From a bacterium (GTDB lineage: Bacteria; Hinthialibacterota; Hinthialibacteria; OLB16): a DNA stretch of 64,000 nucleotides. The notes beneath the pieces are model-generated. The model had not been told where the DNA came from. It did no database searches and saw only the letters and a program-made list of their open reading frames with translations. The translations under genes were made by a program, and so were the position numbers. Of the stretch, positions 7,085 to 55,988 are shown in pieces. Positions within the stretch are counted from its first letter, which is position 1. Every line of letters starts with the position of its first letter. The DNA is taken from positions 513,442 to 577,441 of the forward strand of contig JAJVIK010000007.1 in the NCBI GenBank assembly GCA_022072055.1. Direction: 5' to 3'.

Positions 7085-10124
<3,040 letters not shown>

Positions 10125-10140
10125 GATTGTGTTCGTGCTC

Positions 10141-18285: not shown

Positions 18286-18311
18286 GTGTCCCTCGCTCGC
18301 TCGAAATTGTC

Positions 18312-19814: not shown

Positions 19815-19918
19815 GGGCCTTCTCCAGCTCTTGGGGGCGGCCAAGAAAGTGCGATTCCGCGGGGATGCGCTCCGCGAACGATTGAAGTCGGTATGCTACC
19901 GCCGGAGGTTTCGAGACT

Positions 19919-38110: not shown

Positions 38111-39658
38111 ATGCGGGAAGTCATCCGTCCTGTTCGAGCGGCGAAGCATCGCCTGTGGGTCGGCGCGTTCCTCGCGGGAACTGTCCAGGGGCTACTGGTT
38201 CTTGCCGCCTTGGTGATCCTCCCCGCGGCCGCCATCCGCCTGTGGGAGTTTCCCTGGAACCCGTTTGCGCTCCTTTCGGCCTTGTTGCTGGCTCCGGCAT
38301 GGGGTCTGTATCGTTTGTGGCGCGCGCGGATCAATGACGCCGCCGCGTCGGTCGAGGTGGACCGCCGTTTTCGCCTCGCGGAGCGTCTCTCCAGCGCCTA
38401 TCTCCTCCGTGAGCGACACGACCCGATGGTGGAGCTCTTGAAGGAGGACGCCTCCCGTCACGCCGCCACGCTCCAGGTCCCGAGCCGTTTCCCCATCGAG
38501 CCGCCCAAGCGAACCCCCATCGTGGCCGCGGAGCTGGCCGCTTTCTGCGCGGTGGCGCTCTGGCTTCCGCCCTTTCCCAAGGAGGCCGAAGAACCTGTCC
38601 GTGTCGTTCGCGAGCAGCCTCTTTCGGAGAAGAAGGAAGAGGAGCTCGCCAAGCTTCTGAAGAAGCGCGAGGAGAATCTTCGCAAGCATGAAATCCCCGA
38701 GGCGGCCACGGGGGGACTGGAGCTCAAGGACCCGCTCTCGCTACTGGCCGAACAACTCAAGAAGGAGAAGCTCTCCCAGAAGGAGGCCATGACCCTGCTC
38801 TCCGAGGGGGAACGGGAGCTGCGCGAGAAGAAGGAGAAGCTCGACCGGATCGAGCAGGCCCGGAACCGGATTGCGCGCAACCTGGAGGACCAGCGGTTTA
38901 CCAAGGATGTTCGCGAGTCCCTCTCCGCCGGGGACTATGAAAAGGCCGCCGAGGCGCTGAAGGAGCTTTCCAGTCAACTGGCTTCGTCCGAGCTCTCTCC
39001 GGAGGACATGAGCAAGCTGACCCGTGAGCTGGAGAACTTGGCCAACGATCTGGAGGGAAACCCGGAAATCGCCCAGGCGATCCGTGATGCCCTCAAGGGT
39101 CTGAAGGAGTCCAGCTCCGGCCAGGGTTCTCCCAAGCTTTCCGGCGAAAACCTCGCCAAGGCGCTCTCGGGTCTTTCCAAGGCGGGCGCGAGCCTCTCGG
39201 AGCTCAAGCGCTTGGCCGAACGGAGCGGCGATTTGAACCGTCTGCTCCAGGACGCCGAGCTGGCGAAGCTCGCGCTTGGGGACGCCAGCAAGCAATGCAA
39301 GGCCTGCGGGAAGATCTGTTCCGGCACGATGTGCGCGAAGTGCGCCGGGGGCTGTAATTCGGGCATGGGCGGACCGGGACAAGGGCGCGGCAACACCGCC
39401 AATCCCTATGAGAATCCAAATGCCGGCTTCCAGGATGAAAAGGTCTCCAGCGCCTGGCATCCGGGGCGGATTCTCGGCGTGGTGGAGACCGAAGCGGAAA
39501 ACAGCCCGGCGGTTTCGACCCTGGGGACCGGAGTCGTGTTTGTCGAGGCGGGCGCCCGTGAGCAGGCGGTTGTCCAGGAGGAGATCCCGCCCGGATATGA
39601 AGAAATTGTGCGCGGGTATTTCGACCGAGAGACTCAGCCGCCCGCGACCTCGCCTTGA
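38111..39658 (+). CDS. Membrane-anchored coiled-coil protein with C-terminal Cys-rich (C-x2-C...C-x2-C) motif
   Basis: Two N-terminal TM helices, long K/E-rich coiled coil, CKACGKICSGTMCAKCAGGC. Confidence 0.55.
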   Translation: MREVIRPVRAAKHRLWVGAFLAGTVQGLLVLAALVILPAAAIRLWEFPWNPFALLSALLLAPAWGLYRLWRARINDAAASVEVDRRFRLAERLSSAYLLRERHDPMVELLKEDASRHAATLQVPSRFPIEPPKRTPIVAAELAAFCAVALWLPPFPKEAEEPVRVVREQPLSEKKEEELAKLLKKREENLRKHEIPEAATGGLELKDPLSLLAEQLKKEKLSQKEAMTLLSEGERELREKKEKLDRIEQARNRIARNLEDQRFTKDVRESLSAGDYEKAAEALKELSSQLASSELSPEDMSKLTRELENLANDLEGNPEIAQAIRDALKGLKESSSGQGSPKLSGENLAKALSGLSKAGASLSELKRLAERSGDLNRLLQDAELAKLALGDASKQCKACGKICSGTMCAKCAGGCNSGMGGPGQGRGNTANPYENPNAGFQDEKVSSAWHPGRILGVVETEAENSPAVSTLGTGVVFVEAGAREQAVVQEEIPPGYEEIVRGYFDRETQPPATSP

Positions 39659-41885: not shown

Positions 41886-43046
41886 ATGCACGGACTCAAG
41901 CCGGAAACACCCCTCAGGATCGCCTTGCTGATGGGGAACCGTCTCAACAAATGGCACACCCGCATCTACCTGGAGGCCAGAAACCACGGCGTGGACATCC
42001 GCGCCTTCACCTACCGCCCCTTTCGCTATCCCCTGGATGAAGTCGACCTTCCCCACGAGGTGGTCCCCACCGAGGCTGAGCTTCGTGGCCTGCCGCGAAG
42101 GATTCTCGAAGGGGTGGAAAACCGTCTTTTCGGCGCCGAGATCAGCGAACGCCCCAGCGGGTTGGTGGAGCGCCTCGAGGCTTTCGACCTGATCCACTCA
42201 TGGGAGCTGTTCACCTCGGACACCGAGGATGCCCTTGAAGCGCGCGCCCGGTGGGGGACCCCGGTGTTGGTGACTGTCTGGGACAACATCCCCTTTCACC
42301 GCGAGGAGGACCCAATCTTCGCCGCCCGCAAGGCGCGCGCTCGGGAGGAGGCGGCCGGCTTTCTGGTTTACACGCGCGAGAGCGCCAGGACCTTGATCGC
42401 CGAAGGGATCGAGGAAACGCGCATCCACCAGGTCTTCCCCGGCATCGACCTTGAGACTTTCAAACCGGCTCTTTCCACGCCGAACCCACCCTGCATCTTG
42501 GGAATCGGCCGGATGGTCGAGGAAAAAGGGTTCGAGGACCTCCTCCAAGCCGCCGCGCTGCTTGCCAGACAGCAGCCCCAGTTGGATTTCACCCTCCGCC
42601 TTGTGGGGGAGGGTCCGCTTGGTTCGAGACTGGATCAGCTGGCGAGAGCGGCGGGGCTCGGACAGCGCTACCGACGAATCCCCTCGGCCCCGCACCGCGA
42701 CCTTCCCGATATCCACCGCGCCGCCTCCATCCTGGCGCTCCCCTCGCGTCCCACCTCCGACTGGAAGGAGCAGTTCGGAATGGTCCTTTTGGAGGCGATG
42801 GCCTCGGGGGTCCCGGTGGTGGCATCACGCTCGGGGGGGATTCCTGAAATCGTGGGAGAGGCCGGTCTGCTCTTCGACCCCGGAGACTTTGTGGGATTGG
42901 CGGATTCCCTCGAACGCCTCCTGCTCTCACAAGCACGGTGGCAAAAATTTCGCCAAGCCGGATTGGAGCGCTGTCGGGCACGTTTTGATGTCCGAACAAA
43001 CGCGAAGGAACTAGTAACCATCTACAAAAAGTTCCGCTCGACCTGA
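41886..43046 (+). CDS. Glycosyltransferase family 4 (GT-B, RfaG-like)
   Basis: C-terminal GT1/GT4 signature (EQFGMVLLEAMASGVPVVASRSGGIPEIV). Confidence 0.8.
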   Translation: MHGLKPETPLRIALLMGNRLNKWHTRIYLEARNHGVDIRAFTYRPFRYPLDEVDLPHEVVPTEAELRGLPRRILEGVENRLFGAEISERPSGLVERLEAFDLIHSWELFTSDTEDALEARARWGTPVLVTVWDNIPFHREEDPIFAARKARAREEAAGFLVYTRESARTLIAEGIEETRIHQVFPGIDLETFKPALSTPNPPCILGIGRMVEEKGFEDLLQAAALLARQQPQLDFTLRLVGEGPLGSRLDQLARAAGLGQRYRRIPSAPHRDLPDIHRAASILALPSRPTSDWKEQFGMVLLEAMASGVPVVASRSGGIPEIVGEAGLLFDPGDFVGLADSLERLLLSQARWQKFRQAGLERCRARFDVRTNAKELVTIYKKFRST

Positions 43047-43082: not shown

Positions 43083-46000
43083 ATGAGAATCCGCCCATTC
43101 TCGCTCTTGGCGTTTCCTCCGTTGCTTTTTTGCCTCCTTGTGCCTGGGGCGCGAGCCGCCACGTTCACGGTCACCAACACGAACAACAGTGGGGCGGGAT
43201 CCCTGCGTCAGGCGATCCTGGAGGCCAACAGCGTGCTGCCTCCAGAAGCGGTGTTTATTCATTTTAACATTATCGGAATGTTCGTGTTCCCGATTATCAA
43301 TCCCTCTTCTCCGCTTCCCAACATCCTTCGTCCGGTCACCATCGATGGAACCACTCAGCCGACTTCCAACAACCGCGTGGCCATCCAAGGCATTAACGCG
43401 GGGGCCAACGCGGATGGTCTCCATTTCGGTCCCAACTCCGATGGCAGCGTGGTCCGCGGTCTGGTTATCAACAGTTGGAGCGATGACGGCATCGAGCTTG
43501 AGCAGAGCGATGGCACGGTGGTGGCCAGGAATTGGATCGGAGTCGATTTCGCCTTGGGGATGGTCGATCTGGGTAACGGCGCGGCTGGAGTTCATGTCAA
43601 TAATTCGTCCCACACAAGTATTGGTGGACTCACCGCCGCGGACCGAAACGTGATTTCAGGAAACAACGGAAACGGTGTATGGATCATTAATGGCTCCACT
43701 GGGACTCATGTGATCGGAAACTACATCGGAATTGGCGCTGATGGAGCCACCGCCGTCCGCAACACGAACACGGGGGTCCTTATTGCGGCCTGCTCCGACA
43801 ATTATGTCGGTGGTCCGACAGTCGGGGAAAGAAACATCATTTCCGGCAACGGAAACGGAGTGACTGTGCTGGGGGCCAACGCCAGGAACAATGTGATCCA
43901 AGGAAACTGGATTGGAACCAGCGCGAATGGTTCTGCCGACTTGGGGAATGTGGTGGATGGCGTTCGGATCGAATCGGCGCAAAACACGCTGATCGGAGGG
44001 GATGCATCGTTTGAAGGCAACCCGCCGGGGAATGTCATTTCGGGAAACGACATGGCGGGAGTCCACATTCTGGGGGCAAGCCGCACCTTCATCCAGGGAA
44101 ACGCCATCGGGAAGGATGGCAGCGTGGTGGTCGCGATCCCCAACGGAGGGGATGGAGTTCTCGTTGAAGCCGAGACGCTGGGAGCATGGCCCCGACACAC
44201 GGTCATCGGCGGCAGGGGAGGACTCGGCAACGACATCTCACACAATCAGCTGAGCGGGATCGCGATCGAGGATGGAACCGGTGTGCTGATCCAAGGAAAC
44301 AGCCTCTCCGGGAACGGCCAATATGGCGTACGCCTTCGTAGCGACGACAATGTCGTGGGCGGCCCCAGCCCCGAGGACGGCAACGTGATCGCCTTCAACG
44401 GCCGAAGCGGAGTCTATGTAAACGCATCGAGTGGAAATTTGATCGGCGGGGCCACCGAGGAAAGCGGGACCTTCATCTTTGGGAATCAGGAACATGGCGT
44501 CCTGATCAGCGGTCTCACTGGAGAGAACAATCGGATCGAGGGGTGCAATATCGGACGCACCGTGGGGGGGGGCGCATCGGGAAACCTCCGAAACGGCGTC
44601 CGAATCAGCATGTCAAGCAACAACATCGTGGGGGGAACGGAGCCCCACAAGGCCAACGTCATTGTCGCCAACCAGGAGGGGGGCGTGGCGATTCTCAGTG
44701 AGCTCACCCACGGCAACCGAGTTCAAGGAAACGGGATCGGGGTCAGCCTCGAGATTGTAAACAAAGGGACCTACTCCAACTCTGTTGGGGTGTTGATCGA
44801 TGGCGCCAAGAACAACCTGATCGGCGGAACCGAGCCGGGCGCGAGGAATCTGATCTCAGGTAATGACGGGGATGGCATCCTTCTTCGCAACTCCGCCTCA
44901 AACAACCGCATTCAAGGCAACCTGATCGGCCTCGCGGGGGATGGAGTCTTCGGTGTCGGCAATGGCGCAGCGGGGATCGAAATCCTGAATTCCCCCAACA
45001 ACCTCATCGGCGGCACCATGCCCGGCGCGCGCAATGTGATCGCGGACAACAGCGACGGCATCTTTATCCTCGGAGGAGCCCTCTCCGCGAACAATGTCAT
45101 CCGGGGGAATTACATTGGGACCGATGTCTCCGGCGCGCTGGCTCGAGGGAATCATGTTAACGGGGTCTTCGCCCAAGCGGCGGAATTTGTGGTCGGCGGG
45201 ACCGAACCGGGCGCCGGAAATCTGATTTCCGCGAACAGGCTGCGAGGAGTGTTTCTCTCCAGCTTCGATTCCACTCACTGCCGGGTCCAAGGCAATCGGA
45301 TCGGAACCGACGCCTCCGGCATGGCCGCGCTGGGGAATGGAGGCGACGGGGCCCTCCTGGAGAGCACGATCCAGTGCGCCATCGGCGGAACCGCGCCGGG
45401 CGCGGGCAACCTCATCTCCGGGAATGGCGGGAATGGTGTCTGGCTGGTCACCGGAGCAAGCGGAAATGTTGTCGCGGGCAACTTCATCGGCACGAATATC
45501 ACTGGGGACACAAGTCTCGGGAACGGCCAGAGCGCGGTCCTTATCGAGGACGCCCAATTGAACCGGATCGGGGGAAACCAGCCCGGCGCCGCCAACATCC
45601 TCTCCGGCACCAACCAATATGGGGTCCACATCAATCATCCGCTGGCCAAGGAGAATCGCATCGAGGGCAACTTCATCGGGACCGACATCACGGGCTCATT
45701 GCCCCTCGGCAACAGGTTCGGCGGAGTGTTGATTGTGGACGCCTCGGACAACTATATCGGCGGGACAACACCCGGCGCGGGGAACTTGATCTCCGGAAAC
45801 GGAGGCTCCGGCATCCGCCTGTTCAAGACCATGAACACCCCCGGAAGAACCTTCATTCAGGGCAATCGGATCGGAACCGACGTCACCGGAGTGTTGCCGC
45901 TGGGGAACATGAGTCGAGGCGTCGACCTTTCCGCGACAGTCGGAGTGGAGATCGGAGGGATCACCGAGGGCGCGCGAAACCTGATCTCCGGGAACGGGTT

Positions 46001-47342
46001 CTCCGGAATTCTGTTCCACGATGAGGCGCGCGAAACCCTGGTCCAGGGGAATTTCATCGGGACCGACATCACCGGGCTTCTGCCGGTTCCGAATGGTCTT
46101 GATGGGGTCTTCATCGAAAACGCCCCAAGCAATCTGGTCGGAGGCGCCACTCCCGGCGCGGGAAACCTGATCTCCGGGAACGCCCGCTATGGCGTCTATC
46201 TCCTCGATAGCAAGGCGGTCGGGAACCGTGTCCAGGGGAATCGCATCGGCACGGATCTCACCGGTTCCTCGGATATCGGCAACGCCTCGGCGGGGATGTA
46301 CATCAAAGCCGCGACCGGCAATGCTCTAGGCGGAACCGGAGCGGGCGAGGGGAATCAAATCGCCTTTAACCTCGCCGGGGTGACCATCCTTTCCGGCTCG
46401 ATGAACCCCATCCTCTCCAACTCGATCTTCTCCAATGATGGCCTTGGAATCGATCTTGGCGAGGACGGAGTCACCGCCAACGACGAGATCGACTCCGACA
46501 CCGGCGCGAACGATTTCCAAAACTATCCGATCCTCACCGACGCTCGAATCGCCGAGGCCCAACCGGACAACATCCTGTCGATCACAGGAACCCTGCACAG
46601 CGCCACAGCCACGGAGTTCCTGCTTCAGTTCTTCGCAAGCGAGATCTGCGATGCTTCCGGTTTCGGTGAAGGAAGGGTCTTCATCGGTTCGGCCACTGTT
46701 GTGACCAACGCCTCCGGAGACGTCACATTCACATTCGATTTTCCCATCCAACTTACTGGAGCTCTCCAGCTCACCTCAACCGCCACGGACCCCATCGGCA
46801 ACAGCTCGGAGTTCTCCCAGTGCCTGGAGGTGGTCGGCATTCCGACCCCCACTCCGACCGCGAGCGCCACGCTCACCCCCACCTCGACCCCATCGCCGAG
46901 CGCCTCGCCCACGGAGACCGCGACAGACACGCCAAGCGCCTCTCCGACTCAATCGTCCTCTCCCTCGGCGACCTTCACCGGGCAACCGACCGTCACCGCG
47001 AGCGCAACCCCCTCGGCGACCGCCACGGGACAGCCAACATCCACGCCGACCGCGACCTCCTCATCCGCTCCGAGCGCAACTCCCACTCCCACAACCACGG
47101 GTAGCCTACCGGCGACGTCAACTCCCACTCCCACCACGACCGGCAGCCAAGCGGCCACCCCCACGGCCACTTCCACCTGCGCGCCGGACTACAACCTGGA
47201 TGGGCTGGGGGCGATCGACGCGCGGGACCTTCTGCAGCTCCTCGCCGCGATCCGCTCAGGCGACCCCCAAGCGGACTTCAATTGCGATGGCGCGGTGGAT
47301 GGGGATGATCTGCTCGAGTTCAGTGGGAGGTGGAAGGAATAG
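43083..47342 (+). CDS. Giant secreted right-handed parallel beta-helix repeat protein with Pro/Thr-rich linker and C-terminal dockerin-like domain
   Basis: Signal peptide; tens of PbH1-like repeats (NxIxGNxIGxxxxG); dockerin-like Ca-binding loops DYNLDGLGAIDARDL and DFNCDGAVDGDDL. Confidence 0.8.
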   Translation: MRIRPFSLLAFPPLLFCLLVPGARAATFTVTNTNNSGAGSLRQAILEANSVLPPEAVFIHFNIIGMFVFPIINPSSPLPNILRPVTIDGTTQPTSNNRVAIQGINAGANADGLHFGPNSDGSVVRGLVINSWSDDGIELEQSDGTVVARNWIGVDFALGMVDLGNGAAGVHVNNSSHTSIGGLTAADRNVISGNNGNGVWIINGSTGTHVIGNYIGIGADGATAVRNTNTGVLIAACSDNYVGGPTVGERNIISGNGNGVTVLGANARNNVIQGNWIGTSANGSADLGNVVDGVRIESAQNTLIGGDASFEGNPPGNVISGNDMAGVHILGASRTFIQGNAIGKDGSVVVAIPNGGDGVLVEAETLGAWPRHTVIGGRGGLGNDISHNQLSGIAIEDGTGVLIQGNSLSGNGQYGVRLRSDDNVVGGPSPEDGNVIAFNGRSGVYVNASSGNLIGGATEESGTFIFGNQEHGVLISGLTGENNRIEGCNIGRTVGGGASGNLRNGVRISMSSNNIVGGTEPHKANVIVANQEGGVAILSELTHGNRVQGNGIGVSLEIVNKGTYSNSVGVLIDGAKNNLIGGTEPGARNLISGNDGDGILLRNSASNNRIQGNLIGLAGDGVFGVGNGAAGIEILNSPNNLIGGTMPGARNVIADNSDGIFILGGALSANNVIRGNYIGTDVSGALARGNHVNGVFAQAAEFVVGGTEPGAGNLISANRLRGVFLSSFDSTHCRVQGNRIGTDASGMAALGNGGDGALLESTIQCAIGGTAPGAGNLISGNGGNGVWLVTGASGNVVAGNFIGTNITGDTSLGNGQSAVLIEDAQLNRIGGNQPGAANILSGTNQYGVHINHPLAKENRIEGNFIGTDITGSLPLGNRFGGVLIVDASDNYIGGTTPGAGNLISGNGGSGIRLFKTMNTPGRTFIQGNRIGTDVTGVLPLGNMSRGVDLSATVGVEIGGITEGARNLISGNGFSGILFHDEARETLVQGNFIGTDITGLLPVPNGLDGVFIENAPSNLVGGATPGAGNLISGNARYGVYLLDSKAVGNRVQGNRIGTDLTGSSDIGNASAGMYIKAATGNALGGTGAGEGNQIAFNLAGVTILSGSMNPILSNSIFSNDGLGIDLGEDGVTANDEIDSDTGANDFQNYPILTDARIAEAQPDNILSITGTLHSATATEFLLQFFASEICDASGFGEGRVFIGSATVVTNASGDVTFTFDFPIQLTGALQLTSTATDPIGNSSEFSQCLEVVGIPTPTPTASATLTPTSTPSPSASPTETATDTPSASPTQSSSPSATFTGQPTVTASATPSATATGQPTSTPTATSSSAPSATPTPTTTGSLPATSTPTPTTTGSQAATPTATSTCAPDYNLDGLGAIDARDLLQLLAAIRSGDPQADFNCDGAVDGDDLLEFSGRWKE
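46839..47177 (+). repeat. Low-complexity Pro/Thr/Ser-rich linker-coding repeat inside the beta-helix gene
   Basis: About 113 codons of T/P/S/A with a reiterated TPTPTTTGS unit. Confidence 0.6.
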
Positions 47343-47373
47343 GGGAGTCTCCAGACGGTGGATATCGAAAATC

Positions 47374-47628
47374 TCAATAGTGGTACCTGCAGGCAATAAT
47401 GGTCAGTGTTTCACCCTCCACTTCATAAACGAGGCGGTGTTCACGGTCGATTCGCCTTGACCAACAATTCCTCAGCTGCCAACGAAGAGGCTCAGGTTTT
47501 CCGATTCCCTGGAATGGGTTTCGCTGGGTGTCTTTGATGAGCTCATTGACTCGCTTGAGCATCGCTTTGTCGGTCCGTTGCCAGTGGAGATAATCCTCCC
47601 AAGCCGCCTCCGTGAAGAGGATTCTCAA
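47374..47628 (-). CDS. yoeB: YoeB toxin (Txe/YoeB family mRNA interferase)
   Basis: Near-consensus YoeB sequence (WEDYLHWQRTDK...WSRRIDREHRLVYEVEGETLTIIACRYHY). Confidence 0.9.
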   Translation of the reverse strand: MRILFTEAAWEDYLHWQRTDKAMLKRVNELIKDTQRNPFQGIGKPEPLRWQLRNCWSRRIDREHRLVYEVEGETLTIIACRYHY

Positions 47629-47631
47629 ACT

Positions 47632-47889
47632 CTACTCCTCCTCCGCAAGTTGCCGCTCCTCAGCCTTTCCCGAGCGAGCATCGGCCAACGACTTCATCAA
47701 CCTCTCCTCATTCCTTGGACACCGCAACAGGTACGCCGTCTCCTCCATTGACTCGTAATCCGAAAGAGAAAGGAGTACGGCTGGCGGATGGCCTGAACGC
47801 GAAATGATCACCGGCTCGCAGTCCGCCTCGATACGATCCAGGACGGTCGTGAGGTTCTTCTCGAACTCCGCAAGAGATACAGTTTCCAT
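47632..47889 (-). CDS. yefM: YefM antitoxin (Phd/YefM family)
   Basis: 85-aa ORF 3 nt upstream of yoeB with Phd/YefM-like N-terminus (PVIISRSGHPPAVLLSLSDYESMEET). Confidence 0.85.
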   Translation of the reverse strand: METVSLAEFEKNLTTVLDRIEADCEPVIISRSGHPPAVLLSLSDYESMEETAYLLRCPRNEERLMKSLADARSGKAEERQLAEEE

Positions 47890-48175
47890 TCCGCTCTCCC
47901 ATCGTCTTTCGCCATTCGGTTGTCAAACCAAATCGCGCATCCCCCTGGATACCGGCACCCTCCGGTATGACGGGTGAGGCGCATGACGAGAACAGGGTTT
48001 GTGGCGCATCCGACCACCGGGATGACCGCCTCATTTCCATCCTAAAGCCAGTCTGGCCGGATGCAAAGGCCCCGTGTGTGAGGGACTGGGTGATTGCTCT
48101 CGGGACTTAAGTTGACAGTCGTTCTCTCGCCCACCATTCTGATTACGTAAGGCGACATCCACCCCCTACAAAACC

Positions 48176-48628
48176 ATGCCCGCCCTCACCATCCGCCCTT
48201 ACCAAGACCCCGAAGAAGCCTCGGTGGTCGCGCTCTGGGGCGAGCTGCTTGACGATGGCTCCCCGCACAACGATCCCCTCACCTCCCTTCGCCGTAAACT
48301 GGCGCTGAGTCGGGAATTACTTTTCGTCGCGCTTCTGGATGACCTTGTGGTTGGAACCGCGATGGGCCGATACGATGGGCGCCGGGGATGGATCCATTCG
48401 GTCGCGGTCAAGCCGGAATTCCAGCGCCACGGGATCGGGACCGCCCTCATCCGGAGGGTCGAGGAGGATCTCAAGTCCTTGGGTTGCCCCAAAGTCAACC
48501 TTCAAATCCGCGCCTCGAACAGCGGAGTCGCGGGTTTTTACCAACGCCTTGGTTACACGGTGGAGGAACGGATCAGCATGGGAAAACGCCTCCATGACCG
48601 AGCAGTTCCCCCTCCCTCCACGCCTTGA
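48176..48628 (+). CDS. GNAT family N-acetyltransferase
   Basis: Acetyl-CoA binding motif region (RRGWIHSVAVKPEFQRHGIGTALI). Confidence 0.75.
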   Translation: MPALTIRPYQDPEEASVVALWGELLDDGSPHNDPLTSLRRKLALSRELLFVALLDDLVVGTAMGRYDGRRGWIHSVAVKPEFQRHGIGTALIRRVEEDLKSLGCPKVNLQIRASNSGVAGFYQRLGYTVEERISMGKRLHDRAVPPPSTP

Positions 48629-48691
48629 CCCCTGGGCGCGCCGCCGGTAGCCTCAAACCCACCAATCCCAAGCGCGGCGGAGGTGTTTTCC

Positions 48692-49171
48692 ATGAAAGGC
48701 CATCCCGAGGTCATCGAGGTCCTCAACGAGGCGCTCTGCGCCGAACTCACCGCCATCAACCAGTTCATGATCCACTCCAAAATGTGCCAGAACTGGGGCT
48801 ACCGGAGGCTCTTCAAGAAGTACTACCACGAGTCCATCGAGGAGATGAAACACGCCGAAACGGTGATCGACCGGATCCTCTTCCTCGAAGGCGTTCCCAA
48901 CATGCAGAAGTACCACAAGATCTGTGTCGGGGCCTCCCCCAAGGAACAGTTTGAAAACGACCTCCAGCTCGAGCTCGACGCCGTGGCGCTATACAACCGA
49001 GGGGTCCAGGTCGCCGCCAAGGTCGGCGACAACGGCAGCCGCGATCTGCTGGAAACCCTGCTCCGCGACGAGGAAGAGCATGTGGATTGGATCGAAACCC
49101 AACTTCACATGATCGAGGAGCTCGGCATCCAGCATTTCCTCGCCCAGCAGATGCACGCGGAGGCGGAATAG
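48692..49171 (+). CDS. bfr: Bacterioferritin
   Basis: MKGHPEVIEVLNEAL start, ferroxidase-centre Glu/His pattern, about 159 aa; GGAGG RBS upstream. Confidence 0.9.
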   Translation: MKGHPEVIEVLNEALCAELTAINQFMIHSKMCQNWGYRRLFKKYYHESIEEMKHAETVIDRILFLEGVPNMQKYHKICVGASPKEQFENDLQLELDAVALYNRGVQVAAKVGDNGSRDLLETLLRDEEEHVDWIETQLHMIEELGIQHFLAQQMHAEAE

Positions 49172-49202
49172 GCGTGAGAGCAAGCGCACCCGTGGAGCCT
49201 CC

Positions 49203-50270
49203 ATGAAGAAAGACCAACTCGAATTTCTGAAAACACTCCTCGCCGCGCATGGCCCCTCAGGCTATGAGGAAACCATCCGCGCGGCGTGGCGCAAGCGCGT
49301 GGAGAAGTTCGCAGACACGGTGACCACCGATGTCATGGGGAACTGCATCGCCACCCTCAATCCCAACGGCTCCCCCAAGGTCCTGCTCGCCGGTCACTGC
49401 GATGAGATCGGGTTTCAAGTCTCCCACATCGACGACAAGGGGTTCCTGTTCTTCCGTCAGATCGGCGGGCACGACCTATCCATCGTTCCGGGCAGACGAG
49501 TGCTGATCCACACTCACAAGGGACCGCTCGCCGGGGTGACCGGCAAGAAAGCCATCCACCTGATGTCTCCGGAGGATCGCAAAAAGGTCCCCGAGGTCCA
49601 TGAGCTCTGGATCGACATCGGCGCCAAGGACAAGGATGAAGCCGCCTCGCTCGTCGAGCTCGGGGACAGTGTGACTCACGACCTCGGTTATCAGGAACTG
49701 CGCAACAACCTGGTGGCCTCGCGCGCGCTGGACAACCGCACCGGGGCGTTTGTCGCGGCGGAGACACTGGTCACTCTCGCGCGTGGGAAGGGCAAGCTCG
49801 CGGCATGCGTGGTGGCGGTGGCCACAGTCCATGAAGAGATCGGTCTGCGCGGCGCGATCACCGCCGCTTACGGAACGAACCCGGACATCGGAATCTGCAT
49901 CGATGTGACCCACGCCACGGACAGCCCCGGACTGGATCCTAAGAAGGATGGCGTGGTCAAGCTCGGCGCGGGGCCGACTCTCACCAGGGGAGCGGCGGTG
50001 AACGCGAAGCTCACGCGCCATCTGATCGAGCTGGCGAAGAATGAGAAGATTCCTTACCAGATCGAGGCCAACCCGGGACGGGTCGGGAATGACACCTGGA
50101 GCATTCAGGTCGCCCGCGCGGGTGTGACCACCGCCGACATCGGGATCCCGTTGCGCTACATGCACACCCCCAGCGAGGTCGGATCGCTCGAGGACCTGGC
50201 CGCGGCGGTGAAGCTCCTGAGCGCCTTCTGCGGCGGACTCAAGAAGGGCGCGCGATTCGGAGTGGAGTGA
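49203..50270 (+). CDS. M42 family metallopeptidase (FrvX/CelM-like aminopeptidase)
   Basis: Conserved M42 blocks (LAGHCDEIGF, metal-binding His/Asp/Glu pattern), about 355 aa. Confidence 0.85.
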   Translation: MKKDQLEFLKTLLAAHGPSGYEETIRAAWRKRVEKFADTVTTDVMGNCIATLNPNGSPKVLLAGHCDEIGFQVSHIDDKGFLFFRQIGGHDLSIVPGRRVLIHTHKGPLAGVTGKKAIHLMSPEDRKKVPEVHELWIDIGAKDKDEAASLVELGDSVTHDLGYQELRNNLVASRALDNRTGAFVAAETLVTLARGKGKLAACVVAVATVHEEIGLRGAITAAYGTNPDIGICIDVTHATDSPGLDPKKDGVVKLGAGPTLTRGAAVNAKLTRHLIELAKNEKIPYQIEANPGRVGNDTWSIQVARAGVTTADIGIPLRYMHTPSEVGSLEDLAAAVKLLSAFCGGLKKGARFGVE

Positions 50271-50285
50271 GGGCGCGATGCCTGC

Positions 50286-51839
50286 ATGGAAGAGATTCCG
50301 CCTCTCCGGTATCCTCCCCACATGCGCGAGCACCTGCGCCGCTACCGTTTACCGCTGGCTTTTCTAACCGCCGCGCTTGCCCTGGCGCTTCCTCCCAGCG
50401 ACCGGGAGTGGCTCACCAAGATGTATTACCCGATCCTCTTCGGAAGGTATTCGACCGCCCGTGTCGCCTGGATTCTTTCCCTCCTCTTGATGTCACTCAC
50501 CGCGCTCCTCCGCGCGGAAAGCCTCTTGCATTCGCTTCCGCGGGAACAGAGGTGGGCGCGGTTCCGGGTAAACCTGCTGATCCCCGCCTACACCCTCGCG
50601 GCGGCGTTCGGGATGGTGGAGTTCTACTTTCAGCACAACCCCTCCAGGGTTTCCGGTCGCCATGATGAAACCTGGGTGGAGTCCATCGTTTTCCAGAGAA
50701 TGGCGGAGCGGCCCAAGGATGAGGAATTGGGAATTCTCGGGACTCCCAACATGGAGAAGGACAATAGCGAACTCCTGGAGTATTCGGTCCCGCTGCTCTA
50801 CGCCCCCGCCGAATGGAACCGACTCCCCTTCCCGCGCGTCCGCTACAGGTCGGACTCGGACGGCTTCCGCAACGACACTCAAGTGAACCAGGCCGACCTG
50901 GTCGTGATCGGGGACTCCTTCACTCACGCTCCCATGATTGAGCGCTCCGAAATCTGGTCCTCGGTGCTGGCGAGCCGATTGGGAATCTCGGAACTCAACC
51001 TCGGAATCTGCGGGTATGGCCCGCAACAAGAGGCCCGGGCCCTGTGGCGATATGGAATCAAACGCGGGCCGAAGCTGGTCGTGATGCAGGTCTTCCTCGG
51101 AAATGATGTTCAAGACTCGCTTGTGTTCAAACGATGGAAGACCTCCGGAATGGGATATGTGGAATTCCAGCGCGAACAACATGGGGTCCGACCGATCGTG
51201 CCGACCTGGGTGTTCCTGGCCAACCTGGCGCGACAAGTCCTTCCGGCGCCCGGGAAAGAGAAATGGGACAAGACCCCCGGCTGGTTTCGTCCCGTGGAGC
51301 TCCAATTGCGGGACAGGAGAATCCCCGTGGGATTCGACCCCGACCTAAGGCGCCTCCTCCGCTCCGAGAGAGAGTGGTCCCGAAGCGAGGGGCTGGACAC
51401 CCTCATCCTGTCGATCATGGAGGCGCGCGCCATCACCACCCGCGCGCGAGCGAAATTCGCGGTGATGCTCATCCCCACGAAAACCAGGGTCCTGTACGAC
51501 TTCATCGCGGACCAGGAAAACCGCTCGCGTTTCTACACGCAACAGGCCACCTTCCTGTCCGACTTCGATCCGGACGAACTGGAGCGCCTCCACCTGGAAA
51601 ACAGGGACTCGCAGGCGACTGTCCTCGGCGAATTCCTGGATCGCCAGCGAGTCGCGCGCTTTGATTTCACCCAACCCTTTGTGGATCGAACTCGAACGGA
51701 CGGGGAACTGCTTTACTACGCGCTGGATGCCCATTGGACCCCCGAGGGGCATCGGTTCGCGGGTGAGACTCTCGCTCAGTGGGTCCGGGATCGAGGGCTT
51801 CTTCCCGCCGAGGGGACCCCGTTTGCCGGACCCCACTGA
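50286..51839 (+). CDS. Membrane-anchored SGNH-like DHHW-motif protein (AlgJ/AlgX-like putative O-acetylation protein)
   Basis: N-terminal TM segments; GDSFTH and DAHW motifs. Confidence 0.6.
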   Translation: MEEIPPLRYPPHMREHLRRYRLPLAFLTAALALALPPSDREWLTKMYYPILFGRYSTARVAWILSLLLMSLTALLRAESLLHSLPREQRWARFRVNLLIPAYTLAAAFGMVEFYFQHNPSRVSGRHDETWVESIVFQRMAERPKDEELGILGTPNMEKDNSELLEYSVPLLYAPAEWNRLPFPRVRYRSDSDGFRNDTQVNQADLVVIGDSFTHAPMIERSEIWSSVLASRLGISELNLGICGYGPQQEARALWRYGIKRGPKLVVMQVFLGNDVQDSLVFKRWKTSGMGYVEFQREQHGVRPIVPTWVFLANLARQVLPAPGKEKWDKTPGWFRPVELQLRDRRIPVGFDPDLRRLLRSEREWSRSEGLDTLILSIMEARAITTRARAKFAVMLIPTKTRVLYDFIADQENRSRFYTQQATFLSDFDPDELERLHLENRDSQATVLGEFLDRQRVARFDFTQPFVDRTRTDGELLYYALDAHWTPEGHRFAGETLAQWVRDRGLLPAEGTPFAGPH

Positions 51840-51907
51840 CCCTGTACACTCGCGTTCGCGTCCTTGGGCGCATCCATTCAGTCATAAGGAGGGAGTTCAC
51901 ACTCCCC

Positions 51908-53899
51908 ATGAAAGCAAAGAGTTCCATGACAAAGCGACCGGCTCGTTTGATCACGGACCTGGTCGCGCTTTCCCGCAAGTATGGAAACGATCCGAGCCAC
52001 ATCATCGCCGGCGGCGGAAACACCTCGGTGAAGCTCGGCGAGCGGATGTGGATCAAGGCCAGCGGCCACTCCCTTGCCACCATCGGTCCCGAGGGGTTCC
52101 TCGAACTGCGGATGCCCGAGGTTCTCGGCATCCTGGCGCGAAAGGACTGGAGCGCCGACCGCGACGAGCGCGAGGCGCAGATTGTCCGGGTGTTGCTCAA
52201 TGCCCGCGTGAACCCGCCTTCACCGAATGTGCGCCCCTCGGTCGAGTCGACCCTGCACGCCCTCATGCCGCAGGCGTTCGTGCTGCACACGCATGGGGAA
52301 CTCGCCAACGGTGTCACCTGCTCGCGGAAAGGCGAGGCGGCCTTCAGACGTCTTCCCTTGCCGCGCAAGGTCCGAGCGGTGTGGATTCCCTATGTCGATC
52401 CCGGCATGCCCCTGGCCCAAGCGCTCGCGAAGGCGCTTAAGGGATACCAAGCCAAGCATGGGGTCCCGGCCAACACGGTGTTCATGGGCAAGCACGGTAT
52501 CCTGGTCGCCGCCGATGAGGCCGCCGAGGCGGACTCCCTCATGCAGGCGTGCGATGAGACCATCCGCGGGGAATTGCGGCGCGGCGCGAGGAAGCGCCGA
52601 ACCGAGATTCAAGTGGTGGATCGCGACCTGGAGGCGGCGGTGGTTCCGGCGCTCCGCTCACTCCTACCGGACCCGACCTGGCTCGTCCGAAGAATCGAGG
52701 AGCCCGCGCTCGATGCCCTGCTCTCGAAAGACCTTGCGAGCCGCGCGGCGCTGCTGCCCGACCAGGTGGTCTATTGCGGGACCTTTCCGCTCTGGGTTCC
52801 GCGCCCGCGGTCCCTTGAACCCGAAGTGGTCCGAGCCGCCGCTGGAGAGGCGCTACAGAGGTTTGTCGAGAAGCACGCGCGCGCGCCGCAAGTCTATCTG
52901 ATCGAAAACCTCGGGGCCTACGCGGGCGGGGCGACTGAGAAGGACTTGCGTAACACCTCCGAGATGTTCGCCTCGGCGATGCGCATGACGGTCAACACCC
53001 GCCCCTTTGGCGGACCCAACCCGCTCACGAAGCGCGAGTACGCTTTCATCGACACCTGGAATGTCGAACAGTACCGTCGCGGCCTGGCCGCCGGAAAATC
53101 CGCCACGGGACGGGCCCAAGGGAAGGTCGCGCTGATCACCGGGGCCGGCCAGGGGGTCGGCAAGGAGATCGCCGAAGGGCTTGCCGAAGAGGGCGCGCGC
53201 CTGGTGCTCGTGGACCTGAATTCGGCGACCTTGAACGAGACTGTTCGGGAGATCAACGCGCGTCACGGCGCGGGCCGCGCGGTCGCAGTCCAGGCCAATG
53301 TCGCCATGGAGGAAGACCAACGCGCCGCGGCGCGTCTTGCGGTGCGAACCTTCGGCGGCTTGGACATCGCCATCGCCAACGCGGGCATTCTCAAGGCCTA
53401 CAAGGTGACTCAGTTTCCCGCCGAGGCGTGGCGCTCCATCATCGATGTGAACCTGGTGGGGGCTTTCCTGTTGGCCAAGGTCGCGGCGGAGGTGATGCAA
53501 TACCAGCGCTCCGGCGACATCATCCAGATCAACTCCAAGTCCGGAAAGTCCGGCAGCAAGTACAATTCCGCCTACGCCGCCTCCAAGTTCGGGGGCATCG
53601 GCCTGGTTCAGAGCTTGGCGCTCGATCTGATCGAGGATGGCATCCGGGTCAACGCGATCTGTCCGGGGAATTTTCTCGATCTGCCGCTCTGGTCCGCGCC
53701 GGGCGGGCTGTTCGACCAATATCGCGCCAAGTACGACAATGCAACGCGCGAGGAGGTCCGCCGGATCTACGAAAGCAAGGTGCCGATGGGACGCGGGTGC
53801 CGTGTTTCCGATGTGGTCCGGGCGATCCTGTACATCTTGGAACAAGACTATGAGACCGGCCAGGCCTACAATGTCACCGGCGGCCAGGAGATGCGCTAG
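51908..53899 (+). CDS. Bifunctional rhamnulose-1-phosphate aldolase / short-chain dehydrogenase
   Basis: N-terminal class II aldolase-like domain; C-terminal SDR (GAGQGVG, YNSAYAASK); ATG at 51908. Confidence 0.85.
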   Translation: MKAKSSMTKRPARLITDLVALSRKYGNDPSHIIAGGGNTSVKLGERMWIKASGHSLATIGPEGFLELRMPEVLGILARKDWSADRDEREAQIVRVLLNARVNPPSPNVRPSVESTLHALMPQAFVLHTHGELANGVTCSRKGEAAFRRLPLPRKVRAVWIPYVDPGMPLAQALAKALKGYQAKHGVPANTVFMGKHGILVAADEAAEADSLMQACDETIRGELRRGARKRRTEIQVVDRDLEAAVVPALRSLLPDPTWLVRRIEEPALDALLSKDLASRAALLPDQVVYCGTFPLWVPRPRSLEPEVVRAAAGEALQRFVEKHARAPQVYLIENLGAYAGGATEKDLRNTSEMFASAMRMTVNTRPFGGPNPLTKREYAFIDTWNVEQYRRGLAAGKSATGRAQGKVALITGAGQGVGKEIAEGLAEEGARLVLVDLNSATLNETVREINARHGAGRAVAVQANVAMEEDQRAAARLAVRTFGGLDIAIANAGILKAYKVTQFPAEAWRSIIDVNLVGAFLLAKVAAEVMQYQRSGDIIQINSKSGKSGSKYNSAYAASKFGGIGLVQSLALDLIEDGIRVNAICPGNFLDLPLWSAPGGLFDQYRAKYDNATREEVRRIYESKVPMGRGCRVSDVVRAILYILEQDYETGQAYNVTGGQEMR

Positions 53900-54030: not shown

Positions 54031-55311
54031 TCAGTTCCCGACCGGATCGAGCAGAAACGCGCGGTATTTCCCGTTAATCGTTCCCTCTCCCACAATCTGG
54101 CCCTTGTTGTTGATGTCCTTCGCGATCAAAAGGACCCAGCCTTTCCCATCCACAAGCTGGTTGGTCAGATCATAGAGCGCTCCATCTTTCCACAGGACCG
54201 CGGAGCTTTTCGCGCCGATCCGGTCACTGATCTGGTTCCAGAGTTGACGGACCCAGCGGAACTGCTTGAATCTGTTGTAGAACTTTTGCGCGAGGGGAAT
54301 GTCGATTCCGTCCCCGACAATTTCACCTCGATCATTGAGGGCGAGCGGCCGACAACTCTCGAAAGACTTCATCGCAAGGAAAGCATGGGTTCCGTTGTCC
54401 CAGAGGAAAGGTTCGTATTCGTCAAAATCTCCACCGGTGGGGAAAGCCCCCGCCACTTGACCGCGCTGGTTTAAGGCCGCCGCCGAGCTGCCCTTCATGC
54501 CGCTTAGATGAATGTCCCGCATCCCTTTGTCCGGAGTCCAAACAAAGGCGTGCTGCTCGCCGCTTGCGGTGGAGCCGTATCCGGCGATCCAGCCGGAGGA
54601 GTTTACCGCGGCAGGGTGGACAACGGGGCCTCCGAGATCACCCAAGTCCTCAAAACCACATTCCGAGGTCCATCGGAAGAGGCGTCGATAGGGCCGAGGG
54701 GGCGCCCTTTTCGGACCCTCCATGTCCTGCGCGGCCACCACGAAGGCTCCTCCCGATCCGAAAAGAACGTCCTCGATGGAGGTGAATCCCGTGATGGAAA
54801 GAACAACCTCCTCGGCTGAGGCAGACCGGATGAGGTGAATTCTCTTTGGCTGTCTCAGCGGCGCGCCCGCGCCATACACTCCGAAGGCGCCGCCATAGAC
54901 CGAAGGACCACCCGGCGTGAACTCCTCCACAGTTTCCACAACGAGGATTCTCCCGAGGGGGTCGATTTCGACCGCTGTTCCCGTGGTCCCCTGGGAGAGG
55001 CCCAGGTCTTTCATTCCCGATTCTCTTGTCCACAGAAAGGGATGGGTGACGAAGGGTGGAACAAACTGTTGCATGTTGCCGGGAGACGAATCTTTGGGGC
55101 GCGGAACCGCGGCGCTCCCGACCACCTCGCCTCGATCATTGATGGCCACGGCACGCACTTGCGCGTGCTTGGAGAGAACCCCCAGATCGGTGATGCGATA
55201 ACGAGGTCCCGAGGGCCAGGCCAACAACCACCACAAGAAAAGCGCCCCGAATGCAAAGACCGCCGCCTGGAGGAACGTCTTACGCTGGGTTATTGATTTC
55301 CCCTCAGCCAT
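54031..55311 (-). CDS. HAF-repeat family extracellular/anchored protein, paralog 1
   Basis: N-terminal hydrophobic anchor, PSGPRYRITDLG, HAF-like repeats (INDRGEVVG, QHAFVWTP), C-terminal GKYRAFLLDPV. Confidence 0.7.
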   Translation of the reverse strand: MAEGKSITQRKTFLQAAVFAFGALFLWWLLAWPSGPRYRITDLGVLSKHAQVRAVAINDRGEVVGSAAVPRPKDSSPGNMQQFVPPFVTHPFLWTRESGMKDLGLSQGTTGTAVEIDPLGRILVVETVEEFTPGGPSVYGGAFGVYGAGAPLRQPKRIHLIRSASAEEVVLSITGFTSIEDVLFGSGGAFVVAAQDMEGPKRAPPRPYRRLFRWTSECGFEDLGDLGGPVVHPAAVNSSGWIAGYGSTASGEQHAFVWTPDKGMRDIHLSGMKGSSAAALNQRGQVAGAFPTGGDFDEYEPFLWDNGTHAFLAMKSFESCRPLALNDRGEIVGDGIDIPLAQKFYNRFKQFRWVRQLWNQISDRIGAKSSAVLWKDGALYDLTNQLVDGKGWVLLIAKDINNKGQIVGEGTINGKYRAFLLDPVGN

Positions 55312-55347: not shown

Positions 55348-55740
55348 CTATATCACTTGAACACACGGTCCTGAATCGAGCCGCGACGCTCTCCTGGCGA
55401 ACCCTCGGTCGAAGGTGGCGAACGCCTCGGAACACGAGCTGCTTCCCCAGTGAAGCGCGTCGGCAAAATCAATCCCCCGTTCATAGGCCTCCAGCGCGGA
55501 CACGACCGCGATGGGGTCTTCCAGCACAACCTGAGAAAGCCCGCAGAGCCTTCTGAACGATTCGAGGATCACCGTTCTCGGCAGCTCGTAAGTGTATCGG
55601 AGCACCCATTCGCACTCGAGGAGGACTGTCTTCGGGATGTGGATGGAATTGGCTTCAAAGAGCTCAGTCGCTCGGCGCGCCTGCGCGGGATCATCCCGTG
55701 TCAGGAGGCGAACCAGAATGTTGGTATCGACCGAGATCAT
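55348..55740 (-). CDS. vapC: PIN-domain toxin VapC
   Basis: MISVDTNILVRLL start; 4-nt overlap with the upstream antitoxin gene. Confidence 0.75.
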   Translation of the reverse strand: MISVDTNILVRLLTRDDPAQARRATELFEANSIHIPKTVLLECEWVLRYTYELPRTVILESFRRLCGLSQVVLEDPIAVVSALEAYERGIDFADALHWGSSSCSEAFATFDRGFARRASRLDSGPCVQVI

Positions 55741-55988
55741 CTTTGTCTCGACACACCCTTGCGGATCGCGCCCTCCATTTCGGCGAGCGACTTGCGCGCT
55801 CCGGTGTAGCCCGTGCAGCCGATCACTTCGCGGAGCGTGGTGGCGGGGAAAGGTTGGGTGGGGCGAAGCAGGACCCCCCCGGAGTGCTCCTCCACCAGGA
55901 ATTCGACCCCCGGGCCCCATCCGTGACTTACCCGGATGGCCTTGGGGATGATGATCTGCCCCTTGCTGGAGAGTCGCGTGGTTTCCAT
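55737..55988 (-). CDS. vapB: AbrB/MazE/SpoVT-type antitoxin VapB
   Basis: SpoVT/AbrB swapped-hairpin signature (SSKGQIIIPKAIRVSHG). Confidence 0.75.
   Translation of the reverse strand: METTRLSSKGQIIIPKAIRVSHGWGPGVEFLVEEHSGGVLLRPTQPFPATTLREVIGCTGYTGARKSLAEMEGAIRKGVSRQR

Follow-up and report, generated by a model that had tools for sequence, protein, structure and literature searches.

What does a secreted beta-helix protein hold on to when its chain ends in a dockerin-like domain, and is the helix that it carries an enzyme or a fibre? The question is raised by a gene at positions 43083..47342, plus strand, of a bacterial DNA stretch of 64,000 nucleotides (nt), taken from contig JAJVIK010000007.1 of assembly GCA_022072055.1 and called the window below. 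Coordinates are positions in this whole stretch, and residue numbers are those of the encoded protein of 1419 amino acids (aa). Judged by sequence, profile and predicted fold, the C-terminal 54-aa module of this protein is a real dockerin homologue. The interpretation that we favour, and consider probable with some reserve, is that of a non-catalytic beta-helix fibre that is exported by Sec and attached by its dockerin, via a long spacer, to a partner at or outside the cell surface, where it would act as an adhesin or a spacer.

The tail starts with Cys1366 and finishes with FSGRW. It is composed of the following parts.

47178..47339, plus strand: dockerin module, residues 1366-1419, from NCBIfam, PDB matches, AlphaFold2 and Foldseek
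Residues 1369-1382, plus strand: putative Ca loop 1, DYNLDGLGAIDARD, a 14-residue variant
Residues 1398-1409, plus strand: putative Ca loop 2, DFNCDGAVDGDD, canonical, includes Cys1401
Residues ~1380-1392 and ~1407-1414, plus strand: dockerin helices 1 and 2 as predicted by AlphaFold2 (model residues 22-34 and 49-56)

Sequence comparisons place this module among the dockerins. The isolated 59-aa tail scores 31.9 bits against the NCBIfam model dockerin_GC (NF041540), for which the cut-off is 29. When the tail is compared with the PDB by phmmer, the Ruminococcus flavefaciens dockerin 5lxv_B comes first (2e-6), followed by Clostridium acetobutylicum dockerins, and EF-hand proteins appear at 0.09 or worse. 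A word-index homology search with the 61-aa tail returned zero candidates, and an exhaustive profile search was used instead. With a four-sequence tail profile, 7,377 representative proteins were found at E<=1e-3 among 1.84 billion, and the closest of them were used to build a 26-sequence profile. In the PDB, 17 solved dockerin entries rank first with this profile, all of them as full-length matches (2y3n_B at 3.1e-11, 5lxv_B at 4.4e-10, then 6kg9, 4fl4, 1daq, 2mte, 1ohz, 2ccl, 3ul4 and 2vn5). Calmodulin-type proteins follow only at 1e-6 or worse, with no significant single stretch.

The predicted structure leads to the same family. AlphaFold2 gives a confident two-helix model of the tail, with a mean predicted local distance difference test (pLDDT) of 91.9, and the top 13 Foldseek matches of this model in the PDB are all dockerins, mostly in cohesin complexes. 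The template modelling (TM) scores to dockerins are 0.50-0.68, with a root-mean-square deviation of 1.8-4.3 A (1.8-2.0 A for the best two), and those to EF-hand proteins are 0.2-0.3; on cohesin-bound dockerins, the model superposes with TM 0.6-0.7 and a deviation of about 2 A. The Foldseek E-values are weak (0.01-0.8, 0.013 at best) because the domain is tiny. An earlier reading made from the sequence alone, here the sequence-only reading, had described a C-terminal pair of Ca-binding-type loops resembling dockerin. Both loops are present, the closest PDB matches are dockerins, and the modelled tail best resembles dockerins bound to cohesins.

The two loops are not equivalent. With the canonical Ca2+ ligands taken as positions 1, 3, 5, 9 and 12 of the loop, a first MAFFT alignment puts a two-residue insertion after DxNxDG of loop 1, which gives a 14-residue loop. 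In HMMER and in a second MAFFT alignment, the loop begins at Asn1371 (N-L-D-G-L-G-A-I-D-A-R-D), which leaves Leu at position 5. The pattern D-[YF]-N-L-D-G-[LI]-x-x-[IV]-D-A-R-D also occurs in the proteins P0155, P0245 and P0259, which suggests a conserved variant and not decay. The tail would bind Ca2+. Among the tails examined, Cys1366 and Cys1401 co-vary perfectly, both being present in nine and both absent in five. This co-variation argues for a disulfide clamp, and a Cys1366-Cys1401 bond probably locks the dockerin.

The tail belongs to a portable cassette. A Thr/Pro linker followed by a dockerin with the Cys, NCDG and FSxxW features also ends P0155, P0211, P0241, P0245, P0250 and P0259, which are complete, small, secreted proteins with N-terminal domains unrelated to the beta-helix. 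A beta-propeller protein of 460 aa, P0229, ends in a related cassette that lacks the Cys pair. The occurrence of the cassette on unrelated small secreted proteins suggests a portable anchoring tag. As for the passengers, P0155, P0245, P0250 and P0259 have in common an uncharacterised N-terminal domain of ~80 aa before the cassette (NGNG-x-x-WVSAS-x-EAWSG...LH-x-AGAFDSSVD-x-TN), and a different small domain precedes the same cassette in P0211 and P0241.

The sequence-only reading had expected a cohesin-like partner outside the window, and none was detected inside it, neither among ~50 open reading frames (ORFs) scanned with Pfam nor, at E = 1, in ten unannotated or weakly matched ORFs. Cohesins are likewise missing from the Pfam lists of the loci of four homologues (P0002, P0003, P0014 and P0030). 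This leads to another possibility, in which the tail is a Ca2+-stabilised knob that binds something other than a cohesin: it might attach to the cell's own envelope glycan or matrix, associate fibres with one another, or serve only folding and stability, the protein being a released matrix or biofilm component. In many of the 7,377 proteins found with the tail profile, the module is repeated in 5-39 tandem copies, a pattern that differs from docking modules pairing one to one. Dockerin-like modules outside cellulosomes and without known partners are on record as well (Peer et al., as far as they are cited in PMC6461901), and dockerin-type giant proteins occur in Omnitrophota (bioRxiv 10.1101/2023.11.21.568195). 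However, cohesin-bound dockerins make up all of the best structural matches, an anchoring module is classically placed as this one is, strictly at the C-terminus, after a long spacer and on different passengers, and the related NCBI model is named 'dockerin domain-anchored protein'. We therefore regard such a knob as rather unlikely and tethering of the fibre through a docking partner as the better explanation.

The gene itself is a single ORF with an ATG start and without internal stops, the longest of its region. Its codon-position GC content of 0.58/0.51/0.73 matches the other genes of the window, which has 60-65% GC. Relative to the orthologue in a related metagenome-assembled genome (MAG), the ratio of non-synonymous to synonymous divergence (dN/dS) is 0.09-0.31 in every region with enough changes for an estimate; these low values along the ORF indicate a real gene under purifying selection. 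Scans for promoters and terminators around the gene gave matches no more frequent than expected by chance, and an exact look-up found no identical copy of the protein on record. Upstream of the tail, the chain is divided as follows.

43083..43157, plus strand: Sec-type signal peptide, residues 1-25, predicted cleavage ARA|A, by inspection of the sequence
43158..43532, plus strand: N-terminal cap region, residues 26-150, with the family motif ATFTVTNTNNSGAGSLRQAILEAN (CSLREA-like GSLRQA)
43533..46442, plus strand: predicted right-handed parallel beta-helix, residues ~151-1120, ~32 units of 28-34 aa in super-repeats of 62-65 aa
46443..46529, plus strand: conserved acidic terminal loop of the helix, LGIDLGEDGVTANDEIDSDTGANDFQNYP, residues 1121-1149, from the family alignment
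46530..46838, plus strand: immunoglobulin (Ig)-like beta-sandwich cap, residues 1150-1252, ending in the family motif TSTATDPIGNSSEFS, from AlphaFold2, Foldseek and profile
46839..47177, plus strand: Thr/Ser/Pro/Ala linker, residues 1253-1365, from composition

The N-terminus, read from the translation as MRIRPFSLLAFPPLLFCLLVPGARA|ATF with an A-x-A site, is by its appearance a textbook Sec signal. Inspection shows Arg residues in the n-region (R2/R4) and a hydrophobic core of 15 residues, FSLLAFPPLLFCLLV, and a lipobox looked for in the same way was not found. Most of the 120 best homologues share the motif of the following cap region, and several carry the JGI label 'CSLREA domain-containing'. 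The NCBIfam CSLREA model (TIGR04214-type) did not match the full protein or residues 26-153 at E<=10, the motif being GSLRQA and not CSLREA.

The long central region is assigned to the beta-helix fold by sequence profile. The Pfam family Beta_helix (PF13229) matches in 6 stretches with 76.4 bits (cut-off 25.9, 2.5e-21) and NosD (PF05048) in 5 stretches with 66.2 bits (cut-off 23.6, 3.7e-18); at E<=1, the full-length protein gave nothing else in Pfam. Together with the ORF and the signal peptide, these scores bear out the earlier description of a secreted beta-helix protein of 1419 aa. Autocorrelation of hydrophobic and Gly/Asn positions reveals a period of 62-63 aa. With [IV]xGNxIG as the anchor, residues 210-1076 fall into units of 62-65 aa, interrupted by a single irregular stretch of 210 aa at 337-546. 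The alignment of 12 super-repeats has a mean column identity of 50% and the consensus VQGNxIGTDxxGxxxLGNxxxGVxIxxAxxNxIGGTxPGAxNLISGNxxxGVxL. Between residues 165 and 1118, N-x-x-x-G-[VI]-x-[IVL] is matched strictly 26 times, and the spacing of these matches, 28-34 aa, means that each 62-aa super-repeat consists of two related half-units, giving ~32 units in all. Whether the rung is taken as ~31 aa or ~21 aa, the repeat pattern makes the earlier phrase 'tens of parallel beta-helix repeats' correct. The rod would be roughly 15-20 nm long. Neither the super-repeat profile nor a single-sequence 'mini-protein' joining the N-terminal cap, the first and last repeats and the Ig-like cap matched a solved structure in the PDB.

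The NosD match might suggest a beta-helix factor that assists an ABC-type or maturation system in the periplasm and is not displayed at the surface. The score is well above the cut-off, and the protein has a Sec signal only, with no recognisable signal for export across the outer membrane. However, the match covers only generic PbH1 coils at residues 384-493 (profile positions 54-149 of 212); Pfam models match best in the irregular stretch, which at ~384-546 is made up of canonical PbH1 coils of 23-28 aa. The Pfam scans of the window show no nosF, nosY, nosZ or ABC partner genes nearby, and neither the size of the protein nor its long Thr/Pro spacer nor its dockerin is typical of NosD. That the helix is allelically hypervariable, as described below, also fits an exposed protein. 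A NosD-type factor is thus very improbable.

The helix ends in an acidic loop and an Ig-like cap. The loop and the next ~100 residues form the most conserved part of the family, with 28 near-invariant columns in an alignment of 40 sequences; those of the loop are G28, I29, D30, L31, G35, V36, N39, D40, D43, D45, G47, N49, Q52, N53 and P55. AlphaFold2 with the family alignment predicts a six-strand beta-sandwich at residues 1150-1252 (pLDDT 81-94), and its confidence in the acidic loop is low because the segment was cut out of its context. The cap closes with a near-invariant terminal motif, T-A-T-x(5)-T-S-E-F, which is TSTATDPIGNSSEFS in this protein. The best Foldseek match of the cap model is 8wm1_A (2.2e-6), and CARDB, Ig-like domains of glycoside hydrolase family 2 (GH2) and the WzmWzt carbohydrate-binding module (CBM) were also found. 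The cap family profile detects 8wm1_A in the PDB at 1.4e-8, aligning cap positions 53-152 with chain residues 395-483, as well as the Ig repeats of the biofilm-associated protein Bap (7dm0_A) at 2.9e-6. With the same profile, the 8wm1_A chain shows weak PbH1-like matches upstream of its cap-like region. Single-sequence searches detect the cap in 70 of the 120 best homologues, where 0 to 2,108 further residues come after it.

This solved relative brings in a further explanation, in which the beta-helix is a lyase, hydrolase or epimerase whose substrate is a polysaccharide or some other polymer, and the dockerin recruits this enzyme into a multi-enzyme complex. The deposited name of 8wm1, a protein of 484 aa, is '3-dehydroshikimate dehydratase' (DHS dehydratase). 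Carbohydrate-active members are numerous among beta-helix proteins, glycan-use genes abound in the window (GH78, GH9, RhaT, DUF1080), and glycosyltransferase genes adjoin. The complex could be similar to a cellulosome or to the cohesin/dockerin 'planctosome' hypothesised for peptide degradation in freshwater Planctomycetes (PMC6461901). Against this, no catalytic family was found in the protein with Pfam, NCBIfam or PHROG; specifically, no lyase, hydrolase or phage family was matched by Pfam and PHROGs. The repeats are highly regular, with long irregular loops only at 337-546, where the coils are canonical PbH1, and the glycosyltransferase neighbourhood is not conserved. The literature search retrieved no paper on 8wm1 or on a beta-helix 'DHS dehydratase', so the enzyme name is treated as unverified; it may be a propagated automatic annotation. 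An enzyme is accordingly unlikely, and the earlier suggestion of a polysaccharide-active protein loses its footing, since Pfam and PHROGs matched no carbohydrate-active family. The non-catalytic fibre agrees with the very regular repeats and with Pfam matches that are limited to the generic Beta_helix and NosD families. Apart from this, the same dehydratase name is given at NCBI and UniProt to P0098, a family member of 1983 aa from Aquisphaera giovannonii. A phage depolymerase was rejected as a candidate, no tailspike-like PHROGs match being found.

Between the cap and the dockerin lies a linker of exactly 113 aa (T 34%, S 19%, P 19%, A 15%), the length and Thr/Pro-rich character given in the sequence-only reading. 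Its last 101 nt (47077-47177) contain a 42-nt tandem repeat detected by Tandem Repeats Finder (2.4 copies, 77% matches), which encodes the final TPTPTTTGSxxATx units and is likely a site of length variation. The linker is probably extended and possibly O-glycosylated. A PMT_2 gene (GT-C, protein-mannosyltransferase-like) lies ~11 kb downstream at 58460-60241 on the minus strand, and a weak PMT_2 gene (L001 1-67) ~10 kb upstream of the orthologue P0002. Its product could O-glycosylate the Thr/Ser-rich linker; such genes are common, and the association is maybe a coincidence.

The favoured tethered fibre would work as follows. The Sec signal would export the protein, and a rigid right-handed rod of ~32 rungs would form between the N-terminal cap and the Ig-like end cap. 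The 113-aa spacer would connect this rod to the Ca2+-binding dockerin. The dockerin might then serve as a non-covalent plug that holds the fibre to a cohesin-like protein or to another component of the envelope or matrix, so that the rod would stand at the cell surface or beyond it and act there as an adhesin or spacer. The analysis itself shows the arrangement of the domains, the homology and predicted fold of the dockerin, the modular nature of the tail cassette and purifying selection. What we infer for this model is Ca2+ binding, the position at the surface, the identity of the partner, a role in adhesion and the way across the outer membrane.

Several observations weigh against the tethered fibre. 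The Pfam family Dockerin_1 (PF00404) gives the isolated 55 aa only 15.1 bits, below the cut-off of 22.9 (E = 0.026), and does not match the full-length protein, and dockerin_GC drops to 25.4 bits on the full-length protein, under its cut-off. EF-hand models reach E-values of 0.01-0.1 on the isolated tail, below thresholds. As the result that would speak against it, the sequence-only reading had named failure in dockerin and EF-hand profile searches together with repeats of another fold; the Pfam models for the tail did remain below their thresholds, but every more sensitive test led to dockerins. Loop 1 is non-canonical in either alignment, with 14 residues or with 12 and Leu at ligand position 5. 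A cohesin was found neither in the window nor beside the four homologues, and the sole solved relative of the cap, 8wm1_A, bears an enzyme name. No outer-membrane secretion system is linked to the gene, so the protein may be periplasmic; features of autotransporters or of two-partner secretion (TPS), namely a C-terminal beta-barrel or an N-terminal TPS domain, were absent at Pfam E<=1, the C-terminus being the dockerin. Finally, the rung count and the lack of an active-site cleft are deduced from the amino acid sequence.

Comparison with a near-identical genome indicates how the protein varies. Contig JABWAZ010000264.1 of GCA_013360775.1 (L017) begins inside the gene and could be aligned over 44031-51516, where nucleotide identity was calculated in windows of 300 nt.

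44031-45230, plus strand: helix, 85-88% identity to L017
46131-46430, plus strand: last repeats, 99.7%
46431-47030, plus strand: cap and linker, 89-92%
47031-47630: dockerin and YoeB, 99%
48831-51516: downstream genes, 99.7-100%

The Nei-Gojobori synonymous divergence (dS) is 0.42 in the main helix, 0.06 in the last repeats, 0.35 in the cap, 0.13 in the linker and 0.03 in the dockerin. The range of dN/dS given above comes from the four regions in which it can be estimated, and the dockerin has no non-synonymous change. The mosaic reflects either exchange of the passenger between otherwise identical genomes or a MAG assembled from a mix of strains; the former would be expected of an exposed surface protein. 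A more far-reaching proposal, which we put forward tentatively and consider doubtful, is that the Cys-clamped cassette is a general surface-display tag of the Omnitrophota-labelled lineage and its relatives, acting via a new, non-cohesin receptor, and that the helix is a hypervariable exposed fibre targeted by phage, predator or partner recognition. Just downstream, 31 nt from the gene and convergent with it, a YoeB toxin (TIGR02116, 8e-36; 47374-47628, minus strand) and a YefM antitoxin (47632-47889, minus strand) are encoded, and the pair is also present in L017.

The neighbourhood upstream corresponds to the earlier remark that the gene sits next to glycosyltransferase genes. A GT1-family glycosyltransferase gene (41886-43046) ends 37 nt before it, and a MraY/WecA-type gene (PF00953, 39655-40485) and a methyltransferase gene come just before the GT1-family gene. 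The homologous loci have other neighbours: CbiX, thioesterase and radical SAM genes for P0002, FeoB and a hibernation factor for P0014, SurA-like and RelA genes for P0030, and no conserved neighbours for P0003. Since the four loci all differ, the adjacency of glycosyltransferases appears incidental and a functional link to them is not supported; the beta-helix gene behaves as a stand-alone unit. On the same grounds, an operon with the glycosyltransferases and glycosylation of the linker by their products were considered and found unsupported. With these points, all factual parts of the sequence-only reading were confirmed.

The remainder of the window encodes succinate dehydrogenase, F-type ATPase subunits, ThuA-GFO proteins and two-component and sigma-54 regulators, besides the glycan-use genes. 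The genes resembling a rhamnose-use set (14211-17051, plus; 17230-18618, minus; 18312-19844, minus; 51779-53899, plus) comprise a GH78 alpha-L-rhamnosidase, RhaT, an isomerase-like ORF (weak AraA/fucose-isomerase match) and a fusion of a class II aldolase with a short-chain dehydrogenase/reductase (SDR). The true start of RhaT is probably further downstream, because the ORF overlaps the next one by ~300 nt and the Pfam match begins at residue 115. The F-type ATPase genes (7085-10719, minus) are adjacent, with delta at 10141-10719, alpha at 8574-10124 and a beta-like gene at 7085-8725 that has an ATP-synt_VA_C C-terminal match. There is no room for a gamma gene between the alpha and beta-like genes, and the next ORF, 6167-6961, has a weak fn3 match only. 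At 38111-39658 (plus), a 515-aa ORF without family match shows N-terminal transmembrane segments, a long, Lys/Glu-rich, coiled-coil-like middle and the Cys-rich motif CKACGKICSGTMCAKCAGGC; the stop codon of this ORF and the beginning of the MraY/WecA-type gene overlap by 4 nt. Two paralogous repeat proteins (54031-55311 and 56063-57316, both minus) flank a PIN-domain gene (55348-55920, minus). They have an N-terminal membrane anchor, weak DUF3466 matches and repeated '...GQIVG...' motifs.

Relatives of the whole protein are numerous, more than 7,549 among 8,000 candidates scored. The closest, P0001, is a partial protein with 93% identity from a MAG labelled 'Candidatus Omnitrophica', and the AtpA of the window is 100% identical to a 'Candidatus Omnitrophica bacterium' protein. 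P0002 (62% identity) has the same architecture and the same tail, and P0003 (64%) is without a dockerin. P0014 and P0030 (43-44%) have canonical dockerins, one of which is called by Pfam. GTDB representative genomes contain only distant relatives, with 30-44% identity, and the MAGs in which the more distant members occur are Planctomycetes-like or belong to Verrucomicrobia, Acidobacteria, Eisenbacteria, Chloroflexi and Gammaproteobacteria. Of the 120 best homologues, 22 stop at the cap, ~7 have dockerin-type loops near the C-terminus and one or two a transmembrane segment with a basic tail; others continue into C25 peptidase, Calx-beta or cadherin-like domains. The varied C-termini suggest that the unit is 'N-cap + helix + cap' with an interchangeable C-terminal add-on. 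A literature search retrieved no family member with a tested function.

The protein is thus an ordinary member of a very large family already annotated under generic names, and alone it matters little, as one well-dissected example of huge numbers of annotated beta-helix proteins. What appears to be undescribed is minor: the Cys-clamped cassette with its 14-residue loop, the 62-aa super-repeat without a solved relative, and the allelic mosaicism. The analysis adds that a sub-threshold tail is a dockerin by more sensitive comparisons, defines a portable linker and dockerin cassette by its co-varying Cys pair and 14-residue first loop, and points out 8wm1 as the only solved relative of the family cap. 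If found, the partner of such non-cellulosomal dockerins would explain the display of large surface proteins in many uncultured bacteria of the Planctomycetes-Verrucomicrobia-Chlamydiae (PVC) type and of Omnitrophota-labelled lineages.

The nearest known system is the family named 'right-handed parallel beta-helix repeat-containing' at NCBI and 'CSLREA domain-containing' at JGI, with the same N-terminal motif, 62-aa super-repeat, acidic loop and Ig-like cap. Its members are large secreted proteins of Planctomycetota, Verrucomicrobiota, Omnitrophota-labelled MAGs, Acidobacteriota and others, and, unlike the protein described here, only a minority have a dockerin. Type II secretion in Acinetobacter has a 'CSLREA domain-containing protein' among its substrates (PMC9245377); for the route across the outer membrane this is only a lead, because the present protein does not match the CSLREA model. 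The solved chain 8wm1_A has the cap in common, but is much shorter, has not been seen with a linker or dockerin, and went undetected in single-sequence searches.

Cellulosomal type I dockerins (PF00404; 5lxv_B, Bacteroides cellulosolvens 2y3n_B, C. acetobutylicum 6kgc_B, Clostridium thermocellum 1daq/1ohz) are similar to the tail in having ~55 aa and two Ca-type loops, each with a helix, and in their C-terminal position behind a Thr/Pro linker. The tail differs in its 14-residue loop 1, its Cys1366/Cys1401 pair and its sub-threshold Pfam score. The passenger is not a carbohydrate-active enzyme (CAZyme), nor is the host a cellulolytic Firmicute; the protein matched no CAZyme or CBM family, and neither a cohesin nor a scaffoldin was found in the window. 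Dockerins outside cellulosomes are known (Peer et al., in the citation given by PMC6461901). The best-scoring curated model for the tail is NF041540, 'GC-type dockerin domain-anchored protein'. Cys1366, three residues before loop 1, aligns with the N-terminal Cys of the ...W-G-x-C tails. The present tail ends FSGRWKE, without a terminal Cys, and has its second Cys inside loop 2 (NCDG), so its disulfide topology would be different.

The 'dockerin-type' giants of Omnitrophota (West-Roberts et al., bioRxiv 10.1101/2023.11.21.568195) reach a length of 30,000 aa or more and combine numerous dockerin and thrombospondin repeats with an antiparallel beta-helix and transmembrane anchors. They bear the same lineage label as the protein of this window, are extracellular and carry dockerin/EF-hand repeats, with attachment as their proposed role, whereas the 1,419-aa protein carries one terminal dockerin and a predicted parallel PbH1 helix.

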